Source: Longimicrobiales bacterium (lineage in GTDB: Bacteria > Gemmatimonadota > Gemmatimonadetes > Longimicrobiales > Gaopeijiaceae). Taken from it: DNA of 64,000 nt. The stretch covers positions 2,944,001-3,008,000 of the forward strand of contig CBDFIQ010000002.1 of the NCBI GenBank assembly GCA_965248195.1. Reading direction: 5' to 3'. The position numbers and the translations under genes were made by a program. The notes under the pieces are model-generated. The model ran no database searches, had not been told where the DNA came from, and saw only the letters and a program-made list of their open reading frames with translations. Each line of letters opens with the position of its first letter. The stretch's first letter is position 1. Below, piece by piece: positions 12,545-53,999 of this stretch.

Positions 12545-12614
12545 AGGACATTATAGGGAAGTCGAGGGCGCGCCTGAAAGGGCGAGGCCTTGGTGTCGAG
12601 GCGATTGCCACGAG

Positions 12615-12678
12615 TTGACTGACTCGGCCCTGCCTCTCACGTTGTCCGGATCGCCTGACGGCCGTTGTTTTTCCTATC
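12615..12678 (+). mobile_element. Diverged IS91-like oriIS end with promoter
   Basis: TTGACT-N17-CACGTT, then gttgtttttcctatc|CTTC. Confidence 0.6.
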
Positions 12679-19927: not shown

Positions 19928-20066
19928 TGCGAACCTCCTTCGAGAGAATCAGTGCGGGAGTCTGCACCTCACCTCGGGCGTCGACTTCGACCGTTCTCAA
20001 CGTATTTCGGCGTTCGTTTCTCCGCCACCGTCAGTCAGATTCAGGATCGCAACAGCCCAGTTCACA

Positions 20067-20102
20067 AGTTTCGGGGAGTTTGGGGTCCCGGTTGGGGTCC
20101 CA
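20067..20102. repeat. Partial copy (arm end only) of the tRNA-Lys att-junction repeat
   Basis: agtttcggggagtttggggtcccggttggggtccca is identical to 47487-47522. Confidence 0.75.
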
Positions 20103-30082: not shown

Positions 30083-31458
30083 GGTCAAGTCCCGATTTGT
30101 GTGTAAAAGCGGAGGAAGCTCCTCGCCTTCGGCTAGGCTGCTTGGGCGACCTCCTGTTTCTGGAGGAGTGAGAGGTCGAGGTAACGCCGGTCGCCCCAGA
30201 CGTGTGTGGTCCTGAGTGCGACGGCCGTGATGAGCCTGAGGGCGCTGGCCCGGTCCGGGAAGGCGCCGGCGGCCTTGATCCTGCGTTTGATCTCGCCGTG
30301 CAGCCGCTCGAGGCTGTTGGTGGTACGCAGCCGGGGCCAGTGCGCCTCGGGGAACGCGTAGAACTGCGTCGCTGCCCCGAAGCCCCGCTCCAGGACCTCC
30401 ACGGCCTCGGGCAGCTCCTTCTTCCAGCGTGCGCCGAACTCGCCCAGGAGCTTCTTCGCCTCGGCGAGTCCGGATGTCTGGAAGATCACCGAGACCTCAC
30501 GCGCCACGCGCTTGCGTAGGCGGTGGGGGACCCTCGCCCCCACATTACGCTGCAGATGGACCGTACACCTCTGACGGCGTGCCTCGGGCAGGAAGCGGCG
30601 GACCGCAGCTGCCAGGCCTGCGTGCTCATCGGCGATCACGAGCTCGACACCGCCGAGGCCGCGGTCCTGGAGTTGCTCGAGGAGCTCCGACCAGCTCTGC
30701 TGCGACTCCTCAGCGCCCAGCGTGACGGCCAGGAGCCGTCGGTGACCCTCAGGGCCCACTGCATACGCCACGAGCGCACTCACGTTCTCGACTTTGCGGG
30801 CCCAGCGGGCGTCCAAGAACGTGGCGTCCAGGTACAGATAGGGGTGAGGCCCCTCGATCGGCGCACGGCGCAGCCCTTCCACGGCCTCGTCGAGCCGTTT
30901 TGCCACACGACTCACCGTCGAGCGCCCAACACGCTCGCCCATCAGCGCCTCGGTGACGTCGCCCATCTTGCGCTGTGACACGCCGCTCACATACGCCTCG
31001 ACCATCATCTCGTCGAGCTCGGGGCTCCTGCGCTGGTAGCGGCCGATCACGTCGGCCGGCGAACCGTTGTCCCGGCTCCGGGGCATGGCGACCTCGATCT
31101 GCCCCAGGCTCGTCAGCAGCCGCCTCAGGTATGTGCCGTTCCTATGGTCCTTCCGGCTTCCCACCCGCTCGAAGCGGCGTGCACCTACCATGGCCTTCAG
31201 CTCCTCTTCCAGCACCATCTCGAGCGTCAGCCGGATCGCGCCTTGAAACAGCTCGCGCAAATCATCGCGTAGCTCGTCTTGCGTGGCCCGACCGATCTCC
31301 ACAATCTCTTGCATCGGAAGCTCCTCTCCGGTTCCGAGCCTGCTCTGCAGACCCGGACTCCCGGGTTCATGTGACAGTGAACAACAACAGAGGAGCTTCC
31401 GTTTTTCTTTCCCTCCTGTCCAGCTTATCCGCTTTTACACAAATCTAGGGACACTACC
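30083..31458 (-). mobile_element. IS256-family element with CGCGACGAG target duplication
   Basis: Imperfect IRs sharing tgtgtaaaagcgga; cgcgacgag at 30074-30082 and 31459-31467. Confidence 0.92.
30133..31314 (-). CDS. IS256 (mutator-type) transposase
   Basis: RNG, YLYLDA, QRCTVH, RTTNSLERLHGEIKRR. Confidence 0.95.
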   Translation of the reverse strand: MQEIVEIGRATQDELRDDLRELFQGAIRLTLEMVLEEELKAMVGARRFERVGSRKDHRNGTYLRRLLTSLGQIEVAMPRSRDNGSPADVIGRYQRRSPELDEMMVEAYVSGVSQRKMGDVTEALMGERVGRSTVSRVAKRLDEAVEGLRRAPIEGPHPYLYLDATFLDARWARKVENVSALVAYAVGPEGHRRLLAVTLGAEESQQSWSELLEQLQDRGLGGVELVIADEHAGLAAAVRRFLPEARRQRCTVHLQRNVGARVPHRLRKRVAREVSVIFQTSGLAEAKKLLGEFGARWKKELPEAVEVLERGFGAATQFYAFPEAHWPRLRTTNSLERLHGEIKRRIKAAGAFPDRASALRLITAVALRTTHVWGDRRYLDLSLLQKQEVAQAA

Positions 31459-38398: not shown

Positions 38399-38700
38399 TC
38401 TGCCTCCCTCATAAGACGACGTGGAAAACGCTCACCTGAACTGCGCCTGGGATCGTCACTCCCCAGAGCCGGGCTTCCAATGGCCAGGTCGCGATACCGG
38501 TCGTGAGTATCGATGACAAGTTACGCGGGACACTAATGTCCGGAAAGGGCGAGAGGGTATTGTCCGAGCGCATACCGCGGTGGTATCGCTCATGGGACCA
38601 AAGTCCAATGTCGACCTCGGCTGTCTTCTCGGGCGGGCGTCTGAGTTGCCGCGAGTTTGGGAACGACCCGGAATGACCCCTGCTGCTAGTGTCGCGAGGA

Positions 38701-41091
38701 TTACAGTGCTGAGCCGAGCCGCCTCCGCATGTCGTCGGCCCTCTGCCGCATCGCGTCACCTTCAGCACCGCGGCCCACCTCGCGGAGTAAGCTCGAGTAG
38801 TTGTCTAAAAGCTGCGCTATCGATGGGTGATCGGGGCCGAAGGATGCCTCGAAGGCCTTCAGGGCCGAGTTGTACTGAAGCTCGGCCTCACTGTAGCGTT
38901 GTGTGTTGCTGTAAATCGATCCCAAGTTGAACCTCGTACTCGCCACCGAAGGGTGGTCCGTGCCCAGGAGCCGCTCTTTCATTTGCAGGGAGCGACGTAG
39001 CATCGGTTCGGCCTGTGCGTAGTCCTCCTGTCGCGCGTATAGGATGGCGAGATTGCCCATCGAGTTGGCGAGGTCCGGGTGGTCTCCTCGATACACCTCC
39101 TCCTTGATGGCTAGGGAGCGCACGAATGTCTGTTCGGCCTCGGAAAATCGCCCCGAACGGCTGAACAGGTTCCCTAGCGCGTTGAGAGTCGTGGCGACTC
39201 TAGGATGAGCGGGTCCGTAAACGCGCTCTCTAATGTCCAGGGCGCGGGTTAAAAGCGCTTCGGACTCCTCATAGTCGCCTTCGATCCTGAGTATGACCCC
39301 CAAGTCGTGGAGGGTTCGGTGGAGGTTGGGATGATCGAGCCCATATTCTCCTTCACGGATGCGTAACGCGTCACGATACAGTTCGACCGCAGAAACATTG
39401 TCGCCTCGGTCACGAGCCAGCGTTCCTCGAGACTCGCGTACAGCGGCTACTCGAACGTCGTCTGGGCCGTAAGCGCTCAGGCGGATACTCTCAGCCGCTA
39501 CAAAGGTCGAGTCCGCTTCTTCATATCGTGCGAGATTGAGATAGACCTCACCAAGCCGGTATAGGACGGCTCCGACCTCCGGGTCCCTTGGACCGAGCGC
39601 CTCCGTACGTCCTGCTAGGACTTCCAAATAGAGGCGCTCCGCTTCCTCGAATCTTCCCTGGTCGAAGAAGGTGCGCCCGAGCATCTCGACAGAGGCCAAA
39701 GTCTCGAGCTCGTTTCCCGGAGCTTCCCGACCCCTAATCTCCGACGCCTCCGTCAGGAGTTCAGCTGCCGAGTCGAATCGCCCCAAACTTCGGTAAACGG
39801 TTCCCATCACATGCATTAGACGCGCCTGGAGGAGCGGTTGATCAGCGAGCTCAGTGCGAATCCGCTCCGCCCCCGAATCCAGTATGTCACGGGCCGTAAT
39901 CGTGTCGCCCAGAGCCTCGTCTGGATCACTCGCCTCGAACAATCCCACCAGGAAGTTCGATACCTGAGCGGCGGTTTCAGCCTCCCGTTGAGCAATCCGC
40001 TCCGACGCGCGCGCTTGTACCATCCCGACTGTGGTAGAGACCGCACCTAGGGCCAGAGCCACCGTAGCCACCGCAACCGCTACTGCCCCCACCCTGTTAC
40101 GACGTACGAGCTTTCCCAGCCTATACGTGACCGTCGGCGGCCTGGCATCGATGGGCTGATCCTCCAGATACCGGCGAAGGTCCACGGCCAGGGCGTCTGC
40201 GGCCGAATACCTCCGGTCGCGATCCTTGTCCATCGCTTTTAGTACGATCCACTGAAGGTCTCCTGACAGGACTCTCCTCATGGCTTGTGGAGTCGTGCTC
40301 CGGAGACGCGCCAAGGTCTCCTGTGTAGCCGCCAACTCGAAGAGGCGCTCCCCGAACGTCGGCGGTTCTTCGTTTAGCTGCGCCGCAAACGCCGCCCAGC
40401 CCGGGTTCGCCTTGGGCTCGAAAGGCAGCTCGCCAAGGAGCAGATGGTAGAGCAGCACACCGAGCGAGTAGACGTCGGAGCGCGTCTCTACGTCCGAGGA
40501 GCCAGCGATTTGTTCGGGACTCATGTACGCAGGTGTTCCCACCATCTGGTCGCTTTGGGTGAGATGTGCGCTTTGGAACTCACCAAATCCCGTCGCCTTG
40601 GCGATGCCGAAGTCGATAACACGCGGCCTCGGCTTCCCGTCCACGTCCGTCACGAGAACGTTGGCCGGCTTGAGGTCGCGATGGATGACGCCCTTTTGAT
40701 GCGCATGTTGGACCGCTTCGCACACATCGATGAAGAGCTCGATGCGCTGCCTAATGGTCAGGAGTTGACCGTCGAAGAACTCGTGGATCGGGCCACCGTC
40801 CACGAACTCCATCACGAAGTAGGAGCGACCGTCGCTGCTCACCCCTGCGTCGAAGACCTTTGCGATAGCTGGGTGAGACATTACGGCCAGGGCTTGTCTC
40901 TCGGCCTCGAACCGTCGTAATACCTGCTCTGGGTCCGCTCCGACCTTCATCACCTTCAAAGCAACGCGGCGACGGACGGGCTCCTCTTGCTGCGCCTCGT
41001 ACACGATGCCCATGCCGCCCTGACCGATCATGCGAACGATGTGATACGGACCGATGCGCTCAGGGTGCTCGAACGTGTTTGATTCGGACAT
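38701..41091 (-). CDS. Ser/Thr protein kinase with TM segment and TPR repeats
   Basis: GQGGMG, HRDLKPAN, DFGIAK, GTPAYMSPEQ; G.DHP TPR repeats. Confidence 0.92.
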   Translation of the reverse strand: MSESNTFEHPERIGPYHIVRMIGQGGMGIVYEAQQEEPVRRRVALKVMKVGADPEQVLRRFEAERQALAVMSHPAIAKVFDAGVSSDGRSYFVMEFVDGGPIHEFFDGQLLTIRQRIELFIDVCEAVQHAHQKGVIHRDLKPANVLVTDVDGKPRPRVIDFGIAKATGFGEFQSAHLTQSDQMVGTPAYMSPEQIAGSSDVETRSDVYSLGVLLYHLLLGELPFEPKANPGWAAFAAQLNEEPPTFGERLFELAATQETLARLRSTTPQAMRRVLSGDLQWIVLKAMDKDRDRRYSAADALAVDLRRYLEDQPIDARPPTVTYRLGKLVRRNRVGAVAVAVATVALALGAVSTTVGMVQARASERIAQREAETAAQVSNFLVGLFEASDPDEALGDTITARDILDSGAERIRTELADQPLLQARLMHVMGTVYRSLGRFDSAAELLTEASEIRGREAPGNELETLASVEMLGRTFFDQGRFEEAERLYLEVLAGRTEALGPRDPEVGAVLYRLGEVYLNLARYEEADSTFVAAESIRLSAYGPDDVRVAAVRESRGTLARDRGDNVSAVELYRDALRIREGEYGLDHPNLHRTLHDLGVILRIEGDYEESEALLTRALDIRERVYGPAHPRVATTLNALGNLFSRSGRFSEAEQTFVRSLAIKEEVYRGDHPDLANSMGNLAILYARQEDYAQAEPMLRRSLQMKERLLGTDHPSVASTRFNLGSIYSNTQRYSEAELQYNSALKAFEASFGPDHPSIAQLLDNYSSLLREVGRGAEGDAMRQRADDMRRRLGSAL

Positions 41092-41344
41092 CAGAGTGGG
41101 CTCCGTGGCACGGCCATGAGGCGAGCAAATAGATGCCCAGCGCCGGACAGAGAGTCCGCCAGTGGATTTCTCTGCTCCGGCGCTCGAGTGGACCGTTGAT
41201 CAAGTCCAGAACAGAAGAAACCTGCGGGCTCGGGGTTCGGCCTCAATCGGAAACTCTCCCGACCATCAGGTTACCGTTGAAGACCTTCCTCGCGCAATGA
41301 CAAAAGTGGAAGCCCCTGTACCCAAAGGACTTCCGCCAGTGCCC

Positions 41345-41563
41345 GCCGGAAGCCCGCCTACCTAGGGGCTCCCGGCGAGTGAGCCGGGTGGGTCTCGAAC
41401 CCACGACCTACGGATTAAAAGTCCGATCGCAGCATATACGCAGAGTGCCCGCCAGGTAGCCTAAGTCACGCCGAGTTAGGCTGTTAGGGGGTCGGTTGTT
41501 CTCTGGAGTGTTGCTGAGATCCGACCAGCTTAGGGGAGTTTGGAGTCCCGGTCGGGGTCCCAA
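41345..41563 (-). repeat. att-junction repeat A: arm, tRNA-Lys(UUU) 3' half (41380-41425) and hairpin
   Basis: Minus strand reads cggacttttaatccg taggtc gtgggttcgagacccac ccggctca. Confidence 0.88.
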
Positions 41564-41873
41564 CGTGCCATCCAAGCGTTCAGCCGAGTATCCAGCTGCT
41601 CAGGGTGGAGGTCTAGTCTACCCCCGAGTTCGGCGATCACCACGAAGGCCTCATAGTTCTCTCGGGTCCGCTCCTGCTGATAGCCGAAGCCTACCCGGTC
41701 CACTCCCAGCCGCGGTTTTCCGCCCCGCTTGGGAGCGGCGGGAGGCGACGAAACGTTTCCGAAACGATGCCGAGGGGGGCCTGGGGGTAAGCAGGCCTGC
41801 GTGAGGTTCTACTCCGGGACCCACTCCGGTCCCGGCTATCGCACAGTCTCCCGGGCCGGGATCGGGGGGGGCG

Positions 41874-42287
41874 CTACTGGGCTCCGACCGGCAGGATCTC
41901 GACGGTCGAGTCGTGCATCCAGCCATTGTCCTCGTCGCCGATGACGACGCGCTGGCCGCGACGGATGATCTCGTGCCTGCCCTCATACCAGCGAACGATC
42001 ATGCCGGTCTCGCGGAGCCCGGGCGACAGCTGCACCTGAACCCATTCGCCGCGCCGGCCGATGATCGGTAGCACGGTGCCCTCGGTTACCAGTAATAGCA
42101 GGTTCGAGCCGGTGCTCGGCGCGTCGTGCACGTTGGCGTAGCTCGTCGGTACGCGCGCTCGCTCGCCGGCTGCTTCCTCCTGGGCTGCCGTCGGCGTCGC
42201 CAGGGTTACGACAGCGGCAGCGACCGCCAGTGCCCGCGCTCCAGCGCCGAAGTGTGGTCGCCCGGGAGTAAGTGCATCGGCTTGCAT
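41874..42287 (-). CDS. Exported bacterial SH3-domain protein
   Basis: ANVHDAPST, GEWVQV, GWMH; signal peptide. Confidence 0.6.
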   Translation of the reverse strand: MQADALTPGRPHFGAGARALAVAAAVVTLATPTAAQEEAAGERARVPTSYANVHDAPSTGSNLLLLVTEGTVLPIIGRRGEWVQVQLSPGLRETGMIVRWYEGRHEIIRRGQRVVIGDEDNGWMHDSTVEILPVGAQ

Positions 42288-42442
42288 ACGAGATAGTAGT
42301 AGCGAATAATCATCGTGGTCAAGACAACTCGCAGGGCGCGAGCCGGTCGCTCCCGCCGACGCTGGTATACGCAAGATGGGGTCTGCGCCCGACGAGTGCA
42401 CCGGAGCGCAACCGCCAGCGCAGCGCCAAACGGAGTCTGACG

Positions 42443-43669
42443 ATGCACCAACGAGATTCGCAAGTCCTGTGCTGCGCGTCACTGGCCGCTGCGGCCATTC
42501 TTCTATTGAGCGGCTGTGGCTCCGGCTCCGCTCCGCCGCCGACGGTGCGGGCCGTCGAGATGGGTGACTACGAGGTCGTGCTCGACTGGCCCAAGCCACT
42601 ACCCGACGACGATCTCTCCCACGATGGCTGGACCTGGGGGTCCGGCGCGGGGGCGTTTCCCGAAAGTCCGGACAAGGTCTGGATCGCGCAGCGCGGCGAG
42701 ATCGAGCTGCCGCCGGGCGCCGAGCCCTGGGTCTGCGCCTGCCTGCTCGAGCCGCGCCGCACGAACACGGGCCGGCGCGCCTACTCGGACAACGAGTATT
42801 TCTACGATATGCGCCGGCATCACATCGTCTTCGCCGTCGACAGCGAAGGCTACGCGATCGAGGAATGGCTCCAACACGACGCGTATTTCACGCCGCCGTG
42901 CGGCTCAGGATTGGGTGAGATCGGCCGCGGGCCGCATAAGATCCTGCAGAGTCCCTACGATCCCGAGCGGCACATCTGGATCGTCGACGACGACCAGCAC
43001 GTCATTAGCATCTTCACGAACGACGGGGACCTCGTGAAGGTGATGGGCGAGCGCGGCGTGCCCGGACAAGGGCCGAACAACTTTAATCGACCGACGGACA
43101 TCGCCTGGCTGCCCGACGGGACCTTCTTCGTGGCCGACGGCTATGTCGGCACGCGCGTCGCGAAATTCGACCCGGACGGGAACTTCATCATGGATTGGGG
43201 CCGCTCACCGGTCGATCCGGCTGATCCGCAGCCCTACGAGTTCTGGTCCGTGCACAGCATCGGCATCAGCAACGACCGGCGCATCTTCGTCGTCGATCGC
43301 GAGCACAGCCGTATGCAGGTCTTCGACGAGAACGGCACCTTCCTGACGATGTGGCCGACCGGTCTGTACTCGCAGATCCTCGCGCATACCGTAACCCTCG
43401 ACGACTACATCTGGGTCGCGAACTGGACGACCGACCGGCTCGTCAAGTACGATCTCGAAGGCCGCTACATTCTCGACATCGGCGGCTCCGGCGCGCTGCC
43501 GGGCCAGTTCGACGGCGCGCATCAGATCGAGGTCGACGAGGAGGGCAACCTCTACGTTACCGAGGTCTCGAACGACCGCTCGCAGATGTTTCGCCCGAAC
43601 CCCGGTGCCGATCCGGCACGGCTAGTGCATCGCAGGGTCGGCCAGACTCCCGCGCGTTTCCCGCAGTAA
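42443..43669 (+). CDS. NHL-repeat beta-propeller lipoprotein
   Basis: FNRPTDIAW, FFVADGY, IFVVDRE; lipobox LSGC. Confidence 0.85.
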   Translation: MHQRDSQVLCCASLAAAAILLLSGCGSGSAPPPTVRAVEMGDYEVVLDWPKPLPDDDLSHDGWTWGSGAGAFPESPDKVWIAQRGEIELPPGAEPWVCACLLEPRRTNTGRRAYSDNEYFYDMRRHHIVFAVDSEGYAIEEWLQHDAYFTPPCGSGLGEIGRGPHKILQSPYDPERHIWIVDDDQHVISIFTNDGDLVKVMGERGVPGQGPNNFNRPTDIAWLPDGTFFVADGYVGTRVAKFDPDGNFIMDWGRSPVDPADPQPYEFWSVHSIGISNDRRIFVVDREHSRMQVFDENGTFLTMWPTGLYSQILAHTVTLDDYIWVANWTTDRLVKYDLEGRYILDIGGSGALPGQFDGAHQIEVDEEGNLYVTEVSNDRSQMFRPNPGADPARLVHRRVGQTPARFPQ

Positions 43670-43832
43670 GCGACCGCCGAGGGAGGGGGCCACCCGCACC
43701 CCAGTTGAACAGGGAACCCCCTCGCGAGGCGCACCCGAGGACTTCGAGGTGGGAGGTTGGCTGCTTCAAGCCGCTGAGGGCCGCTGAGTTGCGTGCCGTG
43801 CGCCTCAGTTCTTCCGACGTGAAGGGAGTTCT

Positions 43833-44113
43833 TGGGGCGTGTCGTGGGGCGTCACGCCCCACTTTCGACTCCTAACTCAGCGCAACCAAAAAGCCGGAAG
43901 CCCAGATACTTCCTGGACTCCCGGCCTAATGAGCCGGGTGGGTCTCGAACCCACGACCTACGGATTAAAAGTTCGATAGCAGCATATACGCAGAGTGCCC
44001 TTCAGGTAGCCTAAGTAGCTGCGAGTTAGGGTGTTAGGAGGTCGGTTGTTCTCCCGAGTGTTCTCTAGATTCGACCAGTTTCGGGGAGTTTGGGGTCTCG
44101 GTTAGGGTACCAA
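43833..44113 (-). repeat. att-junction repeat B: arm, tRNA-Lys 3' half (43930-43975), terminator and second arm
   Basis: Ungapped match to copies A and C; tggggcgtgtcgtggggcgt direct repeat beyond the terminator. Confidence 0.88.
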
Positions 44114-44244
44114 GACAGACAGAACCTGTGGTACAGCCAGACGCCGTAACTGATGATCTCCGGAGGGAAACAGTAGCCGCAGTAGCCATTCGTATGCGTT
44201 ATGATTCCGGAGTCTCGCCGGCACGAGCTCAAGTTGACAACGCC
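44114..44244 (-). mobile_element. IS6-family remnant (left end plus transposase N-terminus)
   Basis: End reads ggcgttgtcaacttga; encodes FPPEIISYGVWLYHRFCLS; cut off at repeat B. Confidence 0.75.
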
Positions 44245-44257
44245 TTTCGGCTGGATC

Positions 44258-45343
44258 CTACCTTCTGTCGTAGCGGACGAAGGCTCTCGGACCCACCTCG
44301 GCGCCGTAGACGACCGCCCCACCGTTGATCGCCGTGACGCCCTCGGCTGCGCTGCTGCCGCCCCGGGGGTCGGGATCCGGAATGAAAGAACTCACGACGC
44401 CGTCGCGAGCGCTGCCGATCCGGATTCCGCGCTCCCATCCGGCGTGAGCCAGGTCCATGCCATTGTCGTCGCCGTCCCTCGACTCGGAGTCCGCGACGAA
44501 CAGGTTGTCGTCGGCGTCGATGAAAATCCCGCTGGGGCGGCTGAACTGGTACCAGCAATCTAGATAGTTGCCGTCCTGGTCGTAGATCTGAATGCGGTTG
44601 TTATCGCGATCGCCAATGAACAGCCGGCCTTGTGAATCAATGTCTATCGCGTGGAGGCTCGAGAACTCACCCGCTCCGCATGGGCCGTTGCCCGGCTCGC
44701 CCCATTCTAAGATGAAGTTCCCGTCTCTGTCGAACTTCATGATGCGCTCGTTCGTGCCCTCGCCATGACCATCGGCCACGAAGATGTCGCCGTTGTTCCC
44801 TACGACGACGTCGGACGGGGAGCTGAACTGGTTGGGGCCGTTCCCGGACACTTTGAGCGTGCCGAGCTGCAGCAGGATCTCACCGCTCGGGCTGAGCTTC
44901 GTGACCTGCTGTCCAACGTCGCCCCCCGCACCGCGGCCGTCGGGCGGCAGCGGGTCGGTCACCCACACGTTGCCCTGCTGGTCCACGTGGATACCGTGCG
45001 GAAACGCAAACAAGTTGGCCCCCATACGGCCAATCAGATTCCCGTTTGCGTCGTAGTGCATGAGGGGATCGACGTCGGAGTCCACACAGCCATTGCTCCC
45101 GCATCGGTCGATAGCCCAGATGTCGACGCGGCCCTTGGCGGCGTCGGCTCCGGCCGTGGAACCCCAGGTGCGGCCGTCGGGCAGCGCCATGAGCTGCCTC
45201 TCCGAGAAGGGATTCGGCAGGTTGTTGGTCGGCGTCATGTTCGGGTTGCTGTAGTCGTTCTGCTCGGTCGCCGGCGCCGCGCAGACAGTCAATGCTACAA
45301 CCAGCAGCGGCAGCAGGGCCAAACTCATTCTTGAGTGCATCAT
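44258..45343 (-). CDS. NHL-repeat / PAL-like exported protein
   Basis: FPHGIHVD, PSDVVV, IFVADGH, LFIGDRDNNRIQ; paralog of 3028-4179. Confidence 0.85.
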   Translation of the reverse strand: MMHSRMSLALLPLLVVALTVCAAPATEQNDYSNPNMTPTNNLPNPFSERQLMALPDGRTWGSTAGADAAKGRVDIWAIDRCGSNGCVDSDVDPLMHYDANGNLIGRMGANLFAFPHGIHVDQQGNVWVTDPLPPDGRGAGGDVGQQVTKLSPSGEILLQLGTLKVSGNGPNQFSSPSDVVVGNNGDIFVADGHGEGTNERIMKFDRDGNFILEWGEPGNGPCGAGEFSSLHAIDIDSQGRLFIGDRDNNRIQIYDQDGNYLDCWYQFSRPSGIFIDADDNLFVADSESRDGDDNGMDLAHAGWERGIRIGSARDGVVSSFIPDPDPRGGSSAAEGVTAINGGAVVYGAEVGPRAFVRYDRR

Positions 45344-45354
45344 AGAAACCTCGC

Positions 45355-46887
45355 TTACCTGTTCATGTTATAGAGACCTACTTCGCCGCTGCCCGTGCCG
45401 CTGCAGCTCGTCGATCCATACCTCAGAAACTTTTGCACCCGCTGCCCAGTGTCCACTTCGCCGGTGTAGATATTGCCCTGCGAGTCTACGGACAGGGCAT
45501 GGAGCCAGTGGAACTCACCCGCCTGACGGCCGGCCCGTCCAATCCGGTCGAGCTCGGTCCGGTTCTCGCGGTTGATGACGTAGAGCGTGCCGTTAGCGAG
45601 GTCCCCGACGTAGATGCAGCTCTCACCAGGATCGGTGGAGAGCGCCGCAGTGCCAGCCGTCCCGCTGGCCGTGTGCGGGGCTATATGGATCTCATCTACG
45701 AAGCCGCACGCATCGGGCTGAGCGTTCGGATTCGCGCATGGCTTGCCTAACTCCGCCGCTCCCAAATCGAAAATTTGGACGCGGTTGTTACCGCGGTCAC
45801 AGGCGTACAAGAATCCGTCTTGACTCGCGATGGCACAGTGCAGCGGACTGCGGAAGAACAAGGGCGTCATGTTGCCGGCCTGGTAGTCGGCTATCCACGG
45901 GCCGACGTCGGTATCTGCCACTACCGAACTCGGATCGTCCACGACCGGGTTCTGCCCGTACGCACCGAAATGTCCGATGTACTGTCCCGTCTCGGCGTCC
46001 ACGATCAGGATGCGCCGATTCCCGTACCCGTCCGCGACGTAGAGGCGGTTCGTGCTGGCGTCGACGGACATGTCCGCTACCAGATACGGCTGCGGTGTCC
46101 CATTGGGCCCGCCGTCAATGTTCTCGCTGTCCGGTCCTTCCATTCCGGCGGTTCCGATTTGATAGATGAACTCTCCGTCCGCCGTGAACTTCACTATGTG
46201 CGAATCGTCCCCGAAGGGTGCCGCCCACGGATAGGTCGCCAAGCCCTGTTGCTGACGGGCTCCACCGTCCTGCCCGTTCCCCGACACATATACGAAATCA
46301 TTGTGGTCCACGAAGATTCCATGCTCACGTGCCGGCCAGGAACACCCGTCCGCCTCGCGACAGTTCTCCTCGAGGAAGCCCGGATCGGCGGGCCCGCCCC
46401 AGGCGTCGAGTAGGTTCCCTTCGATGTCGAACTTGAGCACCGACGGCGCCGGTACACAGCACCCCGTGTTCCGCTCGGCGTATGGCCTTGAATGTCCGAC
46501 AGCGCTGATCGGGACACCCCGCTCATTCGTCGCAACTCTCGGCATGGCCCCGGCAGAGCTCGCATTCAGCGTCCGCGGCCGATGATACACCCAGATATTG
46601 TCGTTCGAGTCCACGGAAATTCCGCCGACCTGGCCGATCCGCCAATCGTTGGGCAGCGGCTTTGGCCAGCTTGGGTCGACCACGAAGCTCGGCGCCGAAG
46701 CGCCGTCGGGAGCCCGGGACGCCCATCGACTCTCGCCGAGGTTTTCGACCACTCCGGCTTCGCGAAGCGCGGCCGCGGCTGCGCCTTCTTCCGCCGGCGG
46801 TCCGTCTTGCTCCGGACTCATGCAGGCGGCGCTGCCAAAAGCAGTCCCGAGCAGAACAACAAGGGCGACCAAATGAGTCTTCGACAT
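45355..46887 (-). CDS. NHL-repeat beta-propeller lipoprotein
   Basis: WPKPLPN, HGIFVD, LYVADGYGNRR, CDRGNNRVQ, GNIYTGEV. Confidence 0.85.
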   Translation of the reverse strand: MSKTHLVALVVLLGTAFGSAACMSPEQDGPPAEEGAAAAALREAGVVENLGESRWASRAPDGASAPSFVVDPSWPKPLPNDWRIGQVGGISVDSNDNIWVYHRPRTLNASSAGAMPRVATNERGVPISAVGHSRPYAERNTGCCVPAPSVLKFDIEGNLLDAWGGPADPGFLEENCREADGCSWPAREHGIFVDHNDFVYVSGNGQDGGARQQQGLATYPWAAPFGDDSHIVKFTADGEFIYQIGTAGMEGPDSENIDGGPNGTPQPYLVADMSVDASTNRLYVADGYGNRRILIVDAETGQYIGHFGAYGQNPVVDDPSSVVADTDVGPWIADYQAGNMTPLFFRSPLHCAIASQDGFLYACDRGNNRVQIFDLGAAELGKPCANPNAQPDACGFVDEIHIAPHTASGTAGTAALSTDPGESCIYVGDLANGTLYVINRENRTELDRIGRAGRQAGEFHWLHALSVDSQGNIYTGEVDTGQRVQKFLRYGSTSCSGTGSGEVGLYNMNR

Positions 46888-46968
46888 GACACGCCTCTTC
46901 CTACCTACTAAGGTTGCGACAGGATCTCGCTATGTATGTAGCTCGCAACATCGTGCAACTCCTCGAGG

Positions 46969-46984
46969 GGCATTGTCAACTTGA
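46969..46984 (+). mobile_element. Second IS6-like terminal inverted repeat
   Basis: ggcattgtcaacttga matches the reverse complement of 44229-44244 at 15 of 16. Confidence 0.55.
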
Positions 46985-47243
46985 TGTGGCCGGAGTGAAG
47001 CTCAAGTAGGGGATTGATTATCGAGTACGACGAAGGGGACGAGGTGGCGATCCTGTCGCCGTTAGGCATCGCAGAGGTTGAGGAACACATTCTTCCTTCC
47101 TTGATCGCGTGACGTGTGGGTGTCTGGGTTGTCGTCCAACGTCGCGCTCCCGCTCGCGCCCTTATAGAGCGAGCGCTCGACGCGTTCAGATACTCCGACT
47201 TCCCCTCCCATCCGCTGAGTCCCCACCACGCAACCTGAGTTTT

Positions 47244-47523
47244 TGGGGTACCACTTGGGGTCCCATAGGCCCATTTTCGGCCCTGACTCGCGGACACCAA
47301 AAAGCCGGAAGCCCGCCTACCTAAGGGCTTCCGGCCCAGTGAGCCGGGTGGGTCTCGAACCCACGACCTACGGATTAAAAGTCCGATAGCAGCATATACG
47401 CAGAGTGCCCACGAGGTAGCCTAAGTTGTGTCAAGTTAGGGTGTTAGGGGGTCAGTTGTTCTCTCTAGGGGTCCTGAGATACGACCAGTTTCGGGGAGTT
47501 TGGGGTCCCGGTTGGGGTCCCAA
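47244..47523 (-). repeat. att-junction repeat C: arm, tRNA-Lys 3' half (47340-47385), terminator and second arm
   Basis: Perfect hairpin gccggaagccc/gggcttccggc with T-tail on the minus strand; tggggtaccacttggggtccc and tggggtcccggttggggtccc on either side. Confidence 0.9.
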
Positions 47524-47634: not shown

Positions 47635-47740
47635 GCCTGGCCGCCCGCCTCACCCTCCAACCCTGGCGGCCGGCCGCAAATTGACGGGTTTGGACCTCGC
47701 ACTCACGTTGTCCCAACCCGCCAAAGGGCTTTTGCTTTTC
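47635..47740 (+). mobile_element. IS91-like oriIS end with promoter
   Basis: Near-identical to 9943-10054; TTGACG 47681, CACGTT 47704; ends ttttc|CTTC. Confidence 0.65.
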
Positions 47741-48193: not shown

Positions 48194-48390
48194 AGTCCGC
48201 TCGAGGCACTGTCGGATCAGCTCGAGCACACGGTCGGCTGACGACCAATTTCTTGTTGCATCTGCGCTCCCCCTCTTCTATTATGGCCTGTCGTACCCTG
48301 GCGCGGCTGTGACCCCCCCCCACTGAGATTTCCGCGTTCCAGGACCTGCGCTCCATGCAAGACGGCCTCAGGACGACGGATCTACAGCCT

Positions 48391-49914
48391 ATGGCGTTCA
48401 TCGACGGTTTCGGACACGACGTCTTCATCAGCTACGCCCATGTCGACGCCCCCGACCCGTACCATCCCGAGAGCTGGATGGACCGGTTTGACGCGGCGTT
48501 GCAGATCCAGCTAGAACAAAGACTCAACAAGCTGGCGTTTTCGATGTGGCGGGACGACCGTCGGCTGATGCCGAACTTCGAATTCGACGAGGAAATCGCC
48601 CAGAGCATCGACAGCAGCGCCGTCTTGCTGGTACTGCTCTCGCCCGGGTACGTCGATTCGCCCTATTGCCGGATGGAACTCGAGCGCTTCGTGAAGACGG
48701 CGAAGGCGTCCTCCCTCGGGCTCAAGGTCGATAGCGGTTCGCGAATTTTCTTGGTCAAGCTCGATGAGTTGCGACCGGACCAAGCTCAACCGCCCGTGCT
48801 CCAGACCATGGACGGAGTCCAACTCTTCGAGAGGGACAAGAAGAATCTACCACGGAGGTTGCGTGACGGTGACCTCTACCAAGAAGCTGTCGATAGGCTC
48901 GCGGTCCAACTCGCGACCTTTCTGATGCAGATGAAGCAAGCGACGCCGACTCGGAAAGTTTCGACTCGGCCGGTAGCCGGCCTGACGCCGGGCTCCGGGG
49001 GTCCGACGACGGTCTTCCTCGGACATGCGACGTCCGATCTCGAGGAGCAGCGCGAACAACTTGCGGAGACGCTGACGCAGTATGGGGTCACTGTACTGCC
49101 GGATATCGACCCCGCTGGCTTGGATCTGGACTCGCTGACGGACGCGATCGCGAAGCACTGTTCGGCTGCGACGATCTCATTCCACCTTACGGGCAGGAGA
49201 CACGGCGAGCCCCTCTACGGAGACGAGCTCAACCCGACGCTGCCGGTCCTGGACTATGAGGTTGCTGTCGACACGGCCGACTCCCGCAGAAAGAGTCAGG
49301 CCGAGCTGGGGGAATTGGACTCCAACGCGCCTGCCTCCGTGATTGTGTGGACGCCGGGCGAAGTAATCGCCAGCCTGGGGGAAGTGGACGATGCACAGAA
49401 GCAGTTCCTCAGGGAGATCAAGAGACAGAAGAGCGCGAGCGTCGAGTGGTTGCAGCAAGGCATGGAAAACCTAATCGACATCTCGTTCAAGCGGCTCGGC
49501 GTCGAGCGCGAGCAGCCCACAACGGATGCGGTCTCCGACAGCGCCTATGTGCTGGTTTCGTGCAAGCCCGAGGCCAAGCACCATAACGACTTTCGGAAGA
49601 TCCTGGATTACCTGCTCGACCATGGGGTGGACTACGAGTTCGACATCAACAGCGACGTGTCCTTCCAGGAGCATGCTTCACTCTACGATGGCTTATTGAT
49701 CCTCTACCTCGAGTCCGGCGAAACCTGGGTGAAGGCCCGAGCGCGGGAGGCCTCCCAGTGTATCCGGCGACGCAAGGGCCTGGTCGCCGGCATTTACGAC
49801 GGTCCCCCACCCGAGAAACCCGAGTTCGGCTTTGAATCGAGCACGGTCCCGGTCTACGTCGGGCGCGACGGCTTCGATGGCCATGTGCTCGACAATTTCC
49901 TGGAAAGGTTCTAG
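48391..49914 (+). CDS. TIR-domain protein with additional TIR/DUF4062-like modules
   Basis: HDVFISYAHVD, WRD, LLSPGYVDSPYCRMEL; later VFLGHATSDLEEQREQL. Confidence 0.85.
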   Translation: MAFIDGFGHDVFISYAHVDAPDPYHPESWMDRFDAALQIQLEQRLNKLAFSMWRDDRRLMPNFEFDEEIAQSIDSSAVLLVLLSPGYVDSPYCRMELERFVKTAKASSLGLKVDSGSRIFLVKLDELRPDQAQPPVLQTMDGVQLFERDKKNLPRRLRDGDLYQEAVDRLAVQLATFLMQMKQATPTRKVSTRPVAGLTPGSGGPTTVFLGHATSDLEEQREQLAETLTQYGVTVLPDIDPAGLDLDSLTDAIAKHCSAATISFHLTGRRHGEPLYGDELNPTLPVLDYEVAVDTADSRRKSQAELGELDSNAPASVIVWTPGEVIASLGEVDDAQKQFLREIKRQKSASVEWLQQGMENLIDISFKRLGVEREQPTTDAVSDSAYVLVSCKPEAKHHNDFRKILDYLLDHGVDYEFDINSDVSFQEHASLYDGLLILYLESGETWVKARAREASQCIRRRKGLVAGIYDGPPPEKPEFGFESSTVPVYVGRDGFDGHVLDNFLERF

Positions 49915-49925
49915 GGGACACCGTC

Positions 49926-50648
49926 GTGACGGATGGCGACGCACTCCAGGAAGCGGCAGATCGGCGCTTGAACCCCTTCCCGGGGATTCGGCCGTACCAG
50001 CCCGACGAGTCCCACCTCTTCTTCGGTCGCGACGAGCACGTACACGAACTCCTACGCACGATGCGGCGCAATCGTTTTGTCGCGGTGCTCGGGAATTCGG
50101 GTACGGGAAAATCGTCTATTGTCCGAGCCGGGGTGCTTCCACCGCTCGAGTCGGGCTTCATGGTGCCCGAGGCGGGGCTTTGGCGCATGGCGATCATGCA
50201 GCCGGGGAGGTCGGACCCGATCCGGGCGTTGGCGGATGCCATCAGCAGCGACAAGAAGCGCGGCTGGGGGCTCGGGAAGTCCCGCGACGAGGTGCTTCGA
50301 GAATTGAGGCGCGGGGGTCTCGGCCTCATCAATGTCGCTCAGCAAGCGCCTGTCAGACCGGGGAGCCGGTTTCTCATACTCGTCGATCAATTCGAAGAAC
50401 TCTTCGGGTTCATGGACGCACCCGGAGACTTCAGAGGAAGCGACGAAGCCCGTGCGTTTATCCGGCTGTTGATCGAGGCCACGACGAACTCGAGCCTGCC
50501 GATCTACGTCGTGATGACGATGCGCTCGGAGTTTCTGGGCCACTGTGCGGCCCTGCCGGGCCTTACGGAGATTATCAACCGTAGCCTCTATCTCGTTCCG
50601 GAGCTGACTCGGGACCAGCTTCGACAAGTCATCGAGGGCCCGGTACAC
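49926..50648 (+). pseudogene. STAND NTPase (nSTAND1-like) truncated by an IS3
   Basis: NPFPGIRPY, LFFGRD, GNSGTGKSS, LVDQFEELF, TMRSEF. Confidence 0.85.
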
Positions 50649-50706
50649 TGGAGTGAACCCCTGAGGGTGGACAACGAGAGTTGGTTGGATTGACCAGTCA
50701 GTGGCT

Positions 50707-51501
50707 TCAAGCTGCATGAATGCTCTCGAATTCCTCAGGTGGCATGTAACCGAGCGAGGAGTGCAAGCGTCTTCGATTGTACACCTCCTCAAGGAAGTGG
50801 GGGAGTCGGTTGGCTACGTCATCAATTGTGCTGTAGTCGTTTGCCAAGATCTCCTCGTGCTTCAGGGTTTTGAAAAAGCTCTCAACATGGGCGTTGTCGT
50901 ACGGGTTGCCCCGCCGGGACATCGATCCTCGGACACCGTGTTCGGCGAGACGTGAACGGTACAATTGGGATGCATACTGGACGCCGCGATCGGAGTGGTG
51001 GATGAGGCCAGACCGCGGCTGCCGAAGTTCGAGTGCGGCATCGAGTGCGGCCAGGCAAAGACGCACGTCCAGGAGATGGCTGATGGCGTAGCCAATGACA
51101 CGCCGCGACCACACGTCGAGCACGACGGCTAGGAAAACAAAGCCGGTCGTGAGCCGGATGTACGTCAGATCGGCCACCCAGAGCTCGTCAGGCCCCTCGG
51201 GCGTGATCGACGACCTCAGGTTCGGGTAGATGCGCTGCTTGTGATTGCTGTTCGTCGTAGCAAGCCATGCGCGTACGCGGTGGGGCGTAAGCGCGTGTTC
51301 ACGCATAATCCTAGAGACTCGCTTGTGATTGACCACCAGGCCGCGTCTCCCGAGTTCGTGCGTGACCCGGCGATATCCGTAGGCGGGGAACTCGGCGAGA
51401 ATGTCTTCGATCCGCACGCGCAGGTCCCCGTCCGCTCTCTCCCGAGCGGTCTCGCAGGCCGCATCCGGTCGCTTGTAGAAGGTACTCCTCGGGATGTTCA
51501 T
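50707..51501 (-). CDS. IS3 transposase OrfB
   Basis: YGYRR, WVADLTY, HHSDRGVQY, NPYDNAHVESFFKTLKHE. Confidence 0.93.
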   Translation of the reverse strand: MNIPRSTFYKRPDAACETARERADGDLRVRIEDILAEFPAYGYRRVTHELGRRGLVVNHKRVSRIMREHALTPHRVRAWLATTNSNHKQRIYPNLRSSITPEGPDELWVADLTYIRLTTGFVFLAVVLDVWSRRVIGYAISHLLDVRLCLAALDAALELRQPRSGLIHHSDRGVQYASQLYRSRLAEHGVRGSMSRRGNPYDNAHVESFFKTLKHEEILANDYSTIDDVANRLPHFLEEVYNRRRLHSSLGYMPPEEFESIHAA

Positions 51502-51860
51502 GAGGCTGCATCCCCGTCGGACAGGGACACCCCTGGCCCGGAGATGATCGACGGCCGCGCGCTTTTCTGTGACGGCTGTATCAGAGCCCTTTTTTTCATG
51601 GCGTCGAGTTCCATCGTCAACTGACCAATCTTGCGCTCGAGTGCCGCGATCTTGGCCTGGTCCTCGACAACTTGCTCCTGCAGGTGGATCTCCTCCGTAA
51701 GTTCGCCTTCCCCGTACTTCTTGACCCAGATCATGAGTAGGGAGTGAGGTACACTGTGTCGAGTAGCGATCGCCCTCGCACTGCCTTCTCCATCCAAGTA
51801 CGCCTGGACCAGCTGGATCTTGAACTCCGTGCTGTACCTCGTGTGTCGTCGAACCGTCAT
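51498..51860 (-). CDS. IS3 transposase OrfA
   Basis: YSTEFKIQLV, LERKIGQLTMELD. Confidence 0.88.
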   Translation of the reverse strand: MTVRRHTRYSTEFKIQLVQAYLDGEGSARAIATRHSVPHSLLMIWVKKYGEGELTEEIHLQEQVVEDQAKIAALERKIGQLTMELDAMKKRALIQPSQKSARPSIISGPGVSLSDGDAAS

Positions 51861-51998
51861 CGAACCTCCCGAGTGATTACGGAAGGTCAATCCATCGCCC
51901 CCTCTGTGTCCACTTTGTAGGGTTCACTCCAAGACCTGTGCAGCTTTCGATGGCCGTTGACACGGGGAACATAATGGGGGAGGGAGGCCGTGGGAAAC

Positions 51999-52026
51999 TT
52001 GACATTTCATGGGCCCTTTCTAGGTT
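51999..52026 (+). promoter_or_regulatory. Putative sigma70 promoter of the tRNA pair
   Basis: TTGACA-N16-TAGGTT upstream of the IS1595 insertion site. Confidence 0.4.
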
Positions 52027-52132
52027 CCAGCGCACAATTGAAGGGTGTTTCGGAAACGTTTTGTGTAGGTTTGGGTAGGGATCCGAGACACCCTTTTTCT
52101 TGGGGGATTATATCCAATCGTAACCAAACCCC

Positions 52133-52161
52133 TTGACTTTGGCCAGTCATAATGTTACTAT
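52133..52161 (+). promoter_or_regulatory. IS1595 transposase promoter
   Basis: TTGACT-N17-TACTAT; AGGAG RBS before the ATG at 52190. Confidence 0.55.
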
Positions 52162-52189
52162 TAGTCTGTAAATTAGACTAGGAGAAACG

Positions 52190-52827
52190 ATGGCTAAGTC
52201 AGGACCCGGTAAGCACTTCCGAAAGGGGCTCTCACTCATTCAGGTTATGCGGATGTTCCCAGACGATGCGACGGCAGAGCGGTGGATCGCTCAGTGCCGG
52301 TGGGGCGGCGAGCCCGCTTGCCCGCATTGCGGGAGCGATAACGTCCAGGTAGGCGCGAAGCATCCGAGCCAGCCCTATCGTTGCCGCGAGAAGGGTTGCC
52401 GGAAGTTCTTCAGCGTGAAGACCGACACGGCAATGGCCGGGAGCAACCTGGGCTGTCAGACTTGGGCCGTTGCTACGTACTTGCTCGCTACGGGTCTCAA
52501 GGGCCAGGCGTCGATGAAGCTTCACCGCGACCTAGATATCGGACAGAAGGCCGCATGGTTCCTGGCGCACCGCCTACGCGAGACGTGGGAGGCGCAGCAA
52601 GCCCCTTTCACAGCAAGCCCCTTTCAAGGGGCCGGTGGAAGTAGATGAGACCTACATCGGCGGCTTGGAGAAGAACAAGCACGTAGGCAAGAAGGCGAAC
52701 CTGGGCCGGGGCGCGAGTGGCAAGGCCGCCGTGGCAGGCGCGAAGGATCGGGCGACGGGCAGGGTGGCCGCCCGCGTCGTCCACGCGACCGACAGGCAGA
52801 CGCTGCAAGGCTTTGTACGGGGCCAGA
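52190..52827 (+). pseudogene. IS1595 transposase, frameshifted and truncated
   Basis: Zn-ribbon CPHCGS..YRC..C, FSVKT, VEVDETYIGG; 16-bp duplication at 52595-52626. Confidence 0.9.
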
Positions 52828-53237
52828 TAGGAATTGAAGTAAAGATACTAGCCAAGGCGATGATTAAGCAGATCGGTCGCGTTCAAAACGACTTGCGGGA
52901 TCAGGTTGCCCAGTTTCAGCGTGGTATTGGAACGCCCATCTGTGTCGGCATTGTTGGCGTTAATCACGCTGACTACTGCATAAGCTACGAGGGAGAACAG
53001 GCTTGGCCAACGGATGGAGTAAGGCACAAGCACCCAATCCAAGAGGCGGAAATTGCAGAGCAGCGACTGCGAGAAGAAGTGGGCACCAAGTTTGACGAGC
53101 TCTTGTTTCTCCGCTACAAGGCGACGAATGATGAGCCGTACCCGTTCGAGTGGGCTAGCTACGCCGACACTTTTCAGGACTACGGTGCCGCCTTAACTCG
53201 CATCTCTCGCGCTTATGACACAAGGTTTGGGCCGTGA
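52828..53237 (+). pseudogene. C-terminal part of a passenger gene, possibly a PD-(D/E)XK nuclease, fused to the transposase
   Basis: Abrupt switch to IGIEVKILAKAMIKQ with lower GC. Confidence 0.45.
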
Positions 53238-53449
53238 AAGAACACCAACAGGACCTACCCCAGGCGGAGCCGCCCATGAAAGACGATGCAAAGGCACCAT
53301 CCAAGCGCGGCCGCCCGGTCGAGCACTCAATGCCGGACCCCATACCGGACACTCCCGAGAACATCATGAAGGCGTTCCTGAAGACGCCGCCGCGCAAGCG
53401 TGAGGAATGGAAGTTCGTGCAGGAACGGGACAAGAAACAGGCCCCATAG
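53234..53449 (+). CDS. Small hypothetical protein at the IS1595 end
   Basis: KRGRP...PIPDTPENIMKAFLKTPP; overlaps the upstream stop (GTGA). Confidence 0.55.
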   Translation: MKEHQQDLPQAEPPMKDDAKAPSKRGRPVEHSMPDPIPDTPENIMKAFLKTPPRKREEWKFVQERDKKQAP

Positions 53450-53491
53450 CGCCGGGGCCGTGGTTACGATTGGATATAATCCCCTTTTCTT

Positions 53492-53564
<73 letters not shown>

Positions 53565-53568
53565 TTGG

Positions 53569-53613
53569 AAGAGGGGTGAGCCCGTCACTCAGGACGTGCA
53601 GCCCCTCTTTTTT
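53569..53613 (+). terminator. Hairpin with T-run between the tRNAs
   Basis: aagagggg...cccctctttttt. Confidence 0.45.
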
Positions 53614-53614
53614 A

Positions 53615-53686
53615 GGCGCCGTAGCCAAGCGGTAAGGCAGAGGCCTGCAAAGCCTTTATTCCCCGGTTCGAATCCGGGCGACGCCT
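53615..53686 (+). tRNA. tRNA-Cys(GCA)
   Basis: agccaagcggtaaggc D-arm, ctGCAaa loop, ggttcgaatcc; one C-A mismatch in the acceptor stem. Confidence 0.92.
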
Positions 53687-53887
53687 CTAGGGTTTCGGGA
53701 GTTATCGACATCGGCGCGAATTTGGCCACCGTAATCTACCCGTGTCACGGCGTTGTCGAATGCACGGCGCAGAGACCCTATACGCGTCCCAGCTTCGGCT
53801 CGTCGCCGTCGACAATCATGGTGGAATACCCAAGGCGACCGTTTCCCCGCGTAGGTCCGCAGTCGGTACGCGGCTGAGTTTCGGTTC

Positions 53888-53999
53888 GCCTGAGCCCCCG
53901 CTTGACCCCCCGAACGCTGGCGTGAGGCCGCAACTTGACCCGTTTGGCACTGCCCCTCACGTTATCCCGACCCGTCAAAGGGCTTTTGGTTTACCTATC
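53888..53999 (+). mobile_element. IS91-like oriIS end with promoter
   Basis: TTGACC-N17-CACGTT; caaagggcttttggtttacctatc|CTCA. Confidence 0.65.

Follow-up and report, generated by a model that had tools for sequence, protein, structure and literature searches.

How does a bacterial chromosome come to carry the 3' half of one tRNA gene several times in a row, separated by cargo genes and free of integrases? This question is raised by a stretch of 64,000 nucleotides (in the following called the window) from a Longimicrobiales bacterium of the phylum Gemmatimonadota (NCBI assembly GCA_965248195.1, contig CBDFIQ010000002.1, positions 2,944,001 to 3,008,000). Within it, three direct repeats, here called w1 (41381-41563), w2 (43931-44113) and w3 (47341-47523), each contain a 3' half of tRNA-Lys(UUU). 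We conclude that they belong to a known kind of worn-down island array, new for this Gemmatimonadota family, and not to a working integron. The array most resembles cis-mobilizable elements (CIMEs), and we consider it probable, although well short of certain, that it was made by tandem accretion and deletion at tRNA-Lys and later reshuffled. In the following, G000 is the genome under study with its contigs C1 and C2; other G numbers denote genomes of relatives, L numbers arm-bearing loci, P numbers database proteins and X numbers sequencing runs.

Junction anatomy and position in the genome

The three repeats align without gaps over 183 bp, with pairwise identities of 86.9, 89.1 and 88.0%, and are spaced 2550 and 3410 bp apart. 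Read on the minus strand, each consists of an arm of ~134 bp opening with a tandem pair of the motif GG(G/T)ACCCCAA, followed by 48 nt of the tRNA-Lys(UUU) 3' half and a hairpin of -27 to -30 kcal/mol. From the anticodon stem on, these cores match the intact tRNA-Lys(UUU) at 47/48 (w1), 45/48 (w2) and 47/48 (w3) nt. An earlier note, written from the sequence alone, had described the repeats, their periods and this order of parts, all of which stand. It had also placed a hairpin or terminator at each copy; the hairpin is indeed present in all three, but the T-run follows it only at w2 and w3, not at w1. The extent of 183 bp holds as given, but at w3 the repeat continues past the hairpin into a second arm (right arm, P') of ~100 bp, which carries the same site pair and is also found behind the terminator of the intact tRNA (C2:265004-265104).

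The comparison with phage-type attachment sites (attP) is apt for the anatomy, but among w1-w3 only w3 (47190-47523) is a complete and matched junction with left arm (P), core, terminator and P'. The right arm of w2 carries a site pair unlike that in P' of w3, and w1 is joined to a tRNA-Lys(CUU)-type end, which matches the C1:1341600 region and loci L065 and L166. A search of Rfam gave no match at the junctions, and no inverted-repeat ends were present among the 25 longest repeat pairs listed. The junctions are explained by the tRNA plus the arms.

Table 1 Features of the array and of the putative inversion breakpoint (window coordinates).
Feature	Position	Strand	Remarks
w3 left arm (P)	47386..47523	-	tandem arm-type sites 47500-47521; putative arm-site role
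w3 core, tRNA-Lys(UUU) 3' half	47339..47386	-	anticodon loop 47375-47381; 47/48 nt match
w3 terminator-like hairpin with T-run	47297..47336	-	-28.2 kcal/mol
w3 right arm (P')	47190..47292	-	tandem sites 47243-47264
3410-bp-period unit	44114..47189	-	two NHL-repeat genes, 45355-46887 and 44258-45343
w2 P arm and tRNA-Lys(UUU) 3' half	43929..44113	-	degenerate sites 44090-44111; 45/48 nt
w2 hairpin with T-run and right arm of different type	43830..43926	-	site pair 43832-43853
2550-bp-period unit	41564..43829	.	SH3 gene ~41874-42287 (minus) and NHL gene ~42545-43669 (plus), divergent
w1 P arm, tRNA-Lys(UUU) 3' half and hairpin without T-run	41345..41563	-	47/48 nt
tRNA-Lys(CUU)-type 3' end remnant with terminator and the first part of an arm from a different island family; joined to w1	41291..41344	-	
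Further P arm stub, 39 bp	20064..20102	-	overlooked in the earlier note
IS3 copy nested in the end of an insertion sequence	50649..51965	-	likely breakpoint of the inversion separating the array from the tRNA

Searching the genome (4.86 Mb) with at most two mismatches, we detected the tandem arm-site motif eight times, always within the tRNA-Lys hot spot and in one relative orientation; because all eight matches fall there, the repeats cannot be ascribed to chance, nor are they scattered in random orientation. It is thus hardly credible that the repeats stem from a dispersed element resembling a miniature inverted-repeat transposable element, from plain segmental duplication or from an error of assembly. 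The genome is rich in insertion sequences (IS) and no read spans the array, as such an origin would have it, but the copies are 11-13% diverged and flank unrelated cargo, tandem arrays recur at this tRNA in five more near-complete genomes, and a contig with zero differences covers 38535-41374 and reaches into w1.

G000 possesses a single tRNA-Lys(UUU) (C2:264881-264954), and its 3' half matches the core, a check that the earlier note had asked for. The array lies 2.7 Mb away on the opposite strand. The claim that it is anchored at this tRNA consequently holds for the derivation of the core, but not for the position in the assembly. The relatives indicate how the two belong together. In G005, G006 and G009, the tRNA-Lys(UUU) is followed by an island stretch (~36, 77 and 2.6 kb, respectively) and then by core genes whose counterparts in G000 lie left of the window, from C2:2,917 kb downwards (for G009, from 2,904 kb downwards). 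In addition, a block with tRNA-Gly/Cys genes (C2:1467063-1468651) has a duplicate that is split between C2:282252-283520, in inverted orientation, and positions 51963-53688 of the window; the two parts overlap by 4 bp, at the ends of an IS with nested IS3 copies. If one inversion between these points is reversed, w3, w2 and w1 come to follow the tRNA in the correct orientation. Based on the synteny in three relatives and the split duplicate, the window likely represents the far part of a tRNA-Lys island hot spot that was moved by an IS-bounded inversion. A mis-join at the IS repeats would look like an inversion, but the array belongs to the tRNA-Lys hot spot either way. In the relatives, and in G000 after reversing the putative inversion, the tRNA 3' fragment lies downstream of the intact tRNA and is co-oriented with it. 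Beyond w1-w3, three junctions were found at the tRNA itself; the left arm is gone at C2:269396, P' is missing at C2:275735, and the junction at 20064-20102 of the window is a stub. Truncated junctions are common in G000 and its relatives.

The tRNA-Gly(GCC)/tRNA-Cys(GCA) pair of the split block occurs twice, in the window (53485-53688) and at C2:1468447-1468651, within blocks that are 80-96% identical; an IS1595 fragment lies upstream of the window copy.

To locate the crossover point, we compared 53 distinct junctions of left arm and core, 35 with UUU-type and 18 with CUU-type 3' halves, including one hybrid. In 51 of them, the loop is identical to that of either tRNA-Lys, and in none do the 5 nt preceding the loop equal the tRNA's own stem. 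Since tRNA identity starts at this point, the crossover can be placed at the anticodon loop, in agreement with the earlier note.

Cargo units and distribution of the arms

Pfam assigns one SH3_3 protein (26.3 bits, slightly below the cut-off of 27) and three NHL-repeat proteins to the two units and nothing else, consistent with the SH3 and NHL cargo first read from the sequence. By Pfam, no recombination, relaxase or conjugation genes are present in either unit (0 matches for PF00589, PF00239 and PF07508). PF00589 has 21 matches in G000 and none in the window. The 240 kb on either side of the array are free of tyrosine recombinases, as is the stretch from the tRNA to its junctions, and no serine recombinase was found in G000 (91.8% complete). 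The 3410-bp unit is bounded by the right arm of w3 and the left arm of w2; because only w3 is a complete matched site, the arms that flank the 2550-bp unit differ in type. Among 11 genomes of the genus, the best match to the 2550-bp unit reaches only 76%, and near-identical DNA occurs in run X5 of another study. There, the DNA of both units is ~99% identical, and parts of the flanking kinase and TIR genes lack depth.

The arms are spread thinly over one family. The left arm was detected in 20 of 401 genomes of the order, with 19 of 256 other family genomes and none of 144 genomes in two other families; the right-arm region was found in 23 of 314 family genomes. The about 20 arm-bearing genomes belong to 10-11 genera. 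An exact arm pattern matched 118 metagenome stretches, 80 of them with flanks, and arm matches come mostly from Longimicrobiales/Gemmatimonadota records; two arm patterns gave no match among viral contigs. Tandem cores exist in G005 (6), G006 (4), G011 (2), G321 (4) and G360 (3), with periods of 0.8-17.9 kb and no PF00589 between them among the matches listed. In G360, a 190-aa fragment of an unrelated multi-copy family lies just past the last arm. No active element adjoined the array in any of the six arrays examined.

We extended the search for recombinases to 118 distinct right and 87 distinct left arms, of which 59 and 52, respectively, have inner flanks of 1.5 kb or more. Of 201 representative open reading frames (ORFs) within 2.5 kb inside the arms, 184 were covered and yielded neither a tyrosine nor a serine recombinase, at a threshold (E<=1e-9) that overlooks short integrase remnants. 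Of the remaining 17 ORFs, 16 were seen directly or through a close homologue; the last, in L052, encodes part of an integrase from a different family. The cargo inside the arms comprises peptidases, dehydrogenases, transporters, glycosyltransferases and IS genes. We did not take the conservation of the arm sites as a sign of selection, because the search patterns themselves had selected for these sites.

Another recombinase of the host might act on the units. We regard it as very improbable that the units are shuffled by a resident enzyme of a different family, for example that encoded at tRNA-Lys(CUU) or one of the multi-copy integrases of 445/448 aa. With its 21 PF00589 matches G000 does not lack such enzymes, and both the fusion of w1 to a CUU-type end and the hybrid loop would fit. 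However, no such tandem site pair lies within 1 kb of 17 of its own integrase frames, bar weak matches with four mismatches, the integrase of the CUU island has a different site pair of its own at both ends, and the search for a serine recombinase was negative, as stated above.

A second tandem array, at tRNA-Lys(CUU) (C1:1323435-1377600), contains three 3' fragments and at least three types of arm sites, and holds a 396-aa integrase with its own site pair. Five 445-aa tyrosine integrases are encoded on 93-99% identical DNA (C1:358171, C1:805852, C1:1454393, C2:284970 and C2:530852), four of them 2-5 kb from a near-identical, deviant copy of tRNA-Met(CAT). This set possibly represents a multi-copy element carrying or regenerating an initiator-like tRNA.

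Other repeats and mobile elements were noted around the arms and in the window. A block of ~94 bp with a promoter-like core (TTGAC-N17-CACGTT) precedes unrelated accessory genes and gave 16 BLAST hits genome-wide; copies in the window are at 9954-10047, 47645-47738, 53899-53992, 8214-8256 and 12608-12650, and in some relatives the block lies just outside the left arm. In G011, a group II intron (reverse transcriptase and maturase, 99% identical copies) directly precedes a right arm in three places (L030:14717-16162, L032:9686-11131 and L034:11539-12984). In L114, L122 and L146, a tRNA-Lys core and right arm without a left arm follow ~165 bp after tRNA-Ile(GAU), suggesting capture into the island array of another tRNA. 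The window further harbors an IS256-family element (30083-31458) with ~100 near-identical copies in the genome, indicating a strong recent expansion, an apical loop-internal loop (ALIL) pseudoknot (23571-23687) within an IS3 copy inserted into a gene for acyl-CoA synthetase, and a TIR-domain gene followed by an nSTAND1 NTPase gene interrupted by IS3 (48355-50693), which looks like a broken anti-phage sensor.

Exchange of cargo and the candidate parent integrase

Core DNA of G000 is 81-87% identical to that of G005, G006, G009 and G011. In comparison, identity at the DNA level is 95.8-97% for the NHL pair (G006 and G011), 98.3-99.1% for the glycosyltransferase gene at the tRNA (three genomes) and 97.6-98.1% for a PQQ/FGE block (G006). 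High identity alone is no proof of transfer driven by attachment sites, because accessory genes outside the arrays are also >90% identical between G000 and relatives. The order of the blocks differs as well: the NHL pair is closer to the tRNA than the PQQ block in G000 and farther from it in G006, where it has lost both arms (no right arm before and no left arm after it); in G011 its left neighbour is a different one. A fixed cargo order in relatives, named beforehand as an observation that would speak against exchange, was thus not found.

Between near-complete genomes, cargo flanks are identical at 292-297 of 300 positions, yet the first 90 arm positions match at only 82/90 and 76/92. Linkage among 39 variable positions in 46 distinct arms is low (r2 0.026-0.078 vs ~0.022 for free recombination), and all four types occur in 76-87% of the pairs of variable positions. 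In L116, a short metagenome contig that may be chimeric, an internally deleted version of the w3-w2 cassette lies between matched arms behind a CUU core. The mismatch between arms and cargo, the low linkage and L116 speak for homologous recombination at the junctions; chimeric assembly of short reads or recurrent mutation could mimic part of this signal.

These data bear on a possible second life of the junctions, namely that they now serve mainly as homology anchors at which RecA-type recombination swaps, adds or deletes cargo on incoming DNA and an integrase is unneeded. The variation of arm alleles beside cargo flanks that stay 96-99% identical, arm linkage close to the level of free recombination, an intact comEC in G000 and the changed core type before the same cassette in L116, which requires an exchange inside the right arm, all favour it. 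We nevertheless judge it unlikely as the principal explanation. Linkage would be equally low if a few tolerant positions mutated repeatedly or if repeats were assembled chimerically from short reads, many of the 46 arms stem from short metagenome contigs, comEC is near-universal (10/14 controls), and the origin of the arms is left unexplained; as a late phase of accretion and deletion, such recombination is compatible with the reading that we prefer.

Where, then, did the arms come from? Weak local-profile matches in L162, L190 and L196 led to the tail of an integrase. In seven loci, one of them in the near-complete G011, we identified the last 40-50 codons of one tyrosine integrase, in six cases right after a right arm and in the same orientation. 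A protein search with this tail yielded 966 proteins; among the 120 listed, 15 have a length of 379-425 aa and are at least 89% identical over the tail. PF00589 was assigned to all five proteins scanned, and four gave a weak Arm-DNA-bind_4 match below the cut-off. The N-termini of P0016, P0019, P0011, P0035 and P0037 are translations of right-arm DNA, and such fusions enter the integrase at residues 132, 81, 374 and 380 of P0014. These four breakpoints fit independent deletions from a parent laid out in the order right arm, integrase.

Intact proteins carry a possible trace of the same layout. A reading of the site pair (PQ..PQ or PQLV) occurs in the first 40 residues of 7 of 11 returned proteins of at least 410 aa, and PQ[LV]VPQ appears three times in 9.7 million six-frame positions of G000, which equals its right-arm count. 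Since the residues around this reading do not agree with the right arm, the intact proteins may belong to sister elements. Among distant relatives of the integrase, the order tRNA, terminator, tandem sites, integrase was observed in 4 of 13 loci viewed. From these indications, the tail-bearing tyrosine integrase (P0014 family) is likely the parent integrase of the arm family. The signature of integrase loss, tails fused to the right arm, was seen for the arm family, not for the two units of G000.

Other integrases near arms were rejected as cognate enzymes, since those of L052/L083, L054/L097/L098, L065/L086, L166, L255 and L262 are members of multi-copy families or have other site pairs of their own. 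The site pair of the arms also occurs next to a P4-type integrase in Aeromonas loci, but in a different geometry, and we regard this as a resemblance of motifs only.

A close intact version of the P0014-family integrase was not found in 314 family genomes, in which all five matches of at least 90% lie in frames of at most 192 aa. The best full-length matches reach 47-49% in 314 family and 301 phylum genomes (five or six candidates scored per genome), and viral contigs yielded only one relative, at 39%. In runs X1, X2, X5 and X6, one of which is the sample that best holds the window, contigs extend from the tail into the integrase body; the integrase family is therefore present, in intact or partial form, in those communities.

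This presence is one argument for regarding the units as maintained non-autonomous cassettes, for which an infrequent and short-lived visitor would provide the P0014-family integrase in trans, so that they could leave and re-enter either tRNA-Lys gene. The lack of recombinases in the 184 ORFs inside the arms, the spread of the arms over 10-11 genera, the occurrence of one arm family on both isoacceptors, the cassette of L116 and the unlike block order in G000 and G006 would agree with it. We still rate this scenario as rather unlikely, given that no close intact integrase was found in the 314 family and 301 phylum genomes, that shared cargo is often armless, as in the NHL pair of G006, and that the supporting L116 contig is short and possibly chimeric. 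Moreover, an exchange at the loop should keep the arm with its cargo, whereas arms differ by 9-17% and the adjoining 300 bp by 1-4%.

Formation of the array and relation to known systems

The favoured reading, tandem accretion and deletion at tRNA-Lys, can be put into steps. The parent would have consisted of tRNA 3' half, terminator, right arm, integrase, cargo and left arm, as suggested by the fusions of arm and integrase, and would have recombined at the anticodon loop, the point at which tRNA identity starts. As is standard for tandem islands, each newcomer would enter the regenerated tRNA and push older units outward, leaving seams of left arm, core, terminator and right arm. Deletions beginning in the right arm would then strip the integrase; remnants of this kind were observed in other genomes, and the same is presumed for G000. 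Cargo and arm alleles were re-assorted, putatively through IS activity and homologous recombination between the junctions of ~330 bp, and perhaps also during transient visits of an intact relative. Finally, as the split duplicate and the synteny suggest, the IS-bounded inversion likely moved this part 2.7 Mb from the tRNA.

Several observations weigh against this scenario. In the 46 distinct arm copies, the outer boundaries are sharp and shared and the motifs inside are conserved, beyond what decay alone would lead one to expect, and cargo has been transferred recently between species (96-99% vs 82-87% in the core). The putative layout of the parent is drawn from fusions and back-translation, and the residues flanking the site-pair reading in the intact proteins do not match the right arm. 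G000 contains no remnant of the P0014 family, the best match having 26-31% identity. Units close to the tRNA are also without a recombinase, and no partner among integrative and conjugative elements (ICEs) or integrative and mobilizable elements (IMEs) was seen, unlike in published CIMEs. A broader alternative, which we consider conceivable but less than probable, is a family-wide pool of integrase-free packets with working arms, using both tRNA-Lys genes, crossing between species and moved by a rare visiting integrase or by junction recombination.

The earlier note had gone further and proposed an integron-like array shuffled by an integrase acting in trans. As a working system, this proposal is not borne out: in G000, identity to the arm-linked integrase family does not exceed 31%, many junctions are truncated, and the hairpins with a T-run (two of three) would be expected to block read-through, with cargo genes in both orientations. 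Furthermore, no excised circle was seen in the assembled contigs, where no contig spans the array and repeat joints are too short-sided to be readable as circles. An integrase acting in trans might still shuffle the units. Integrons consist of intI, attI, the promoter Pc and attC cassettes. The present array shares with them the small recombinase-free cargo units and their variable order. In contrast to integrons, there is no IntI or attI at its head, the junctions are tRNA-derived, double-stranded attachment sites with terminators, and the units hold two genes each, divergent in one unit, instead of single co-oriented promoterless ORFs transcribed from a common promoter.

Closer counterparts are CIMEs, decayed elements of 1.2-13 kb that keep their attachment sites without genes for recombination and transfer and, in the sections devoted to them, are described as numerous at tRNA-Lys in S. 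agalactiae (PMC7563491). Like the streptococcal CIMEs, including those at tRNA-Lys(CTT) of S. agalactiae, the units are bounded by attachment sites, free of recombinase and transfer genes, arranged in tandem at the 3' end of a tRNA-Lys target and variable in order; the cargo described there is metabolic (PMC7563491). As far as that account goes, published CIMEs derive from ICEs or IMEs and occupy the target-distal end of an array in which an active ICE or IME precedes them, whereas here neither a conjugation module nor an active partner was seen (PMC7563491). The present array also differs from those described there in that the tRNA-proximal units are recombinase-free, one arm family uses both isoacceptors and the host belongs to the Gemmatimonadota (PMC7563491).

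A similar accretion is reported, in the part of the study dealing with these arrays, for ssrA of Dehalococcoides, where 15 islands lack the integration module and 16 keep it, with strain-specific cargo (PMC3146451). Tandem islands delimited by copies of the target 3' end and conserved flanks, some without a module, are common to both; the target there is a tmRNA and the enzyme the serine recombinase DsiB, whereas here it is a tRNA anticodon loop, likely a tyrosine integrase, and no intact module was found (PMC3146451). The Islander approach, in its description of island classes, includes an anticodon-centred class and demands an integrase per island and a co-oriented fragment downstream of the tRNA (PMC4383910). 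The co-oriented 3' tRNA fragment, the anticodon-loop crossover and the tandem arrays agree with this class, but the units would be discarded for want of an integrase and, as placed in the present assembly, also for their orientation (PMC4383910). Tycheposon islands of Prochlorococcus, as characterized in the relevant portion of that work, expand as newcomers displace older elements outward, and contain partial tRNAs along with pieces of integrases; tRNA-seeded hot spots in which intact elements are rare and transient are a shared trait, but tycheposons carry an integrase and often replication or packaging genes, none of which were seen here (10.1101/2020.12.28.424599).

In the open-access literature, we found no description of such arrays in Gemmatimonadota, nor of integrase-less tRNA cassette arrays. 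Read as a relic, the array would extend CIME-type accretion to an uncultured Gemmatimonadota family, name the likely integrase together with its arm sites, and exemplify a class of islands skipped by island finders that require an integrase. If the arms are still used in trans, they would provide a route for trading metabolic packets of 1-6 kb between species without a recombinase of their own, and the integrase and w3 would form a testable recombination pair. Should the units instead belong to a maintained pool, the family would possess an integron-like cassette economy on tRNA attachment sites, with the recombinase outsourced.

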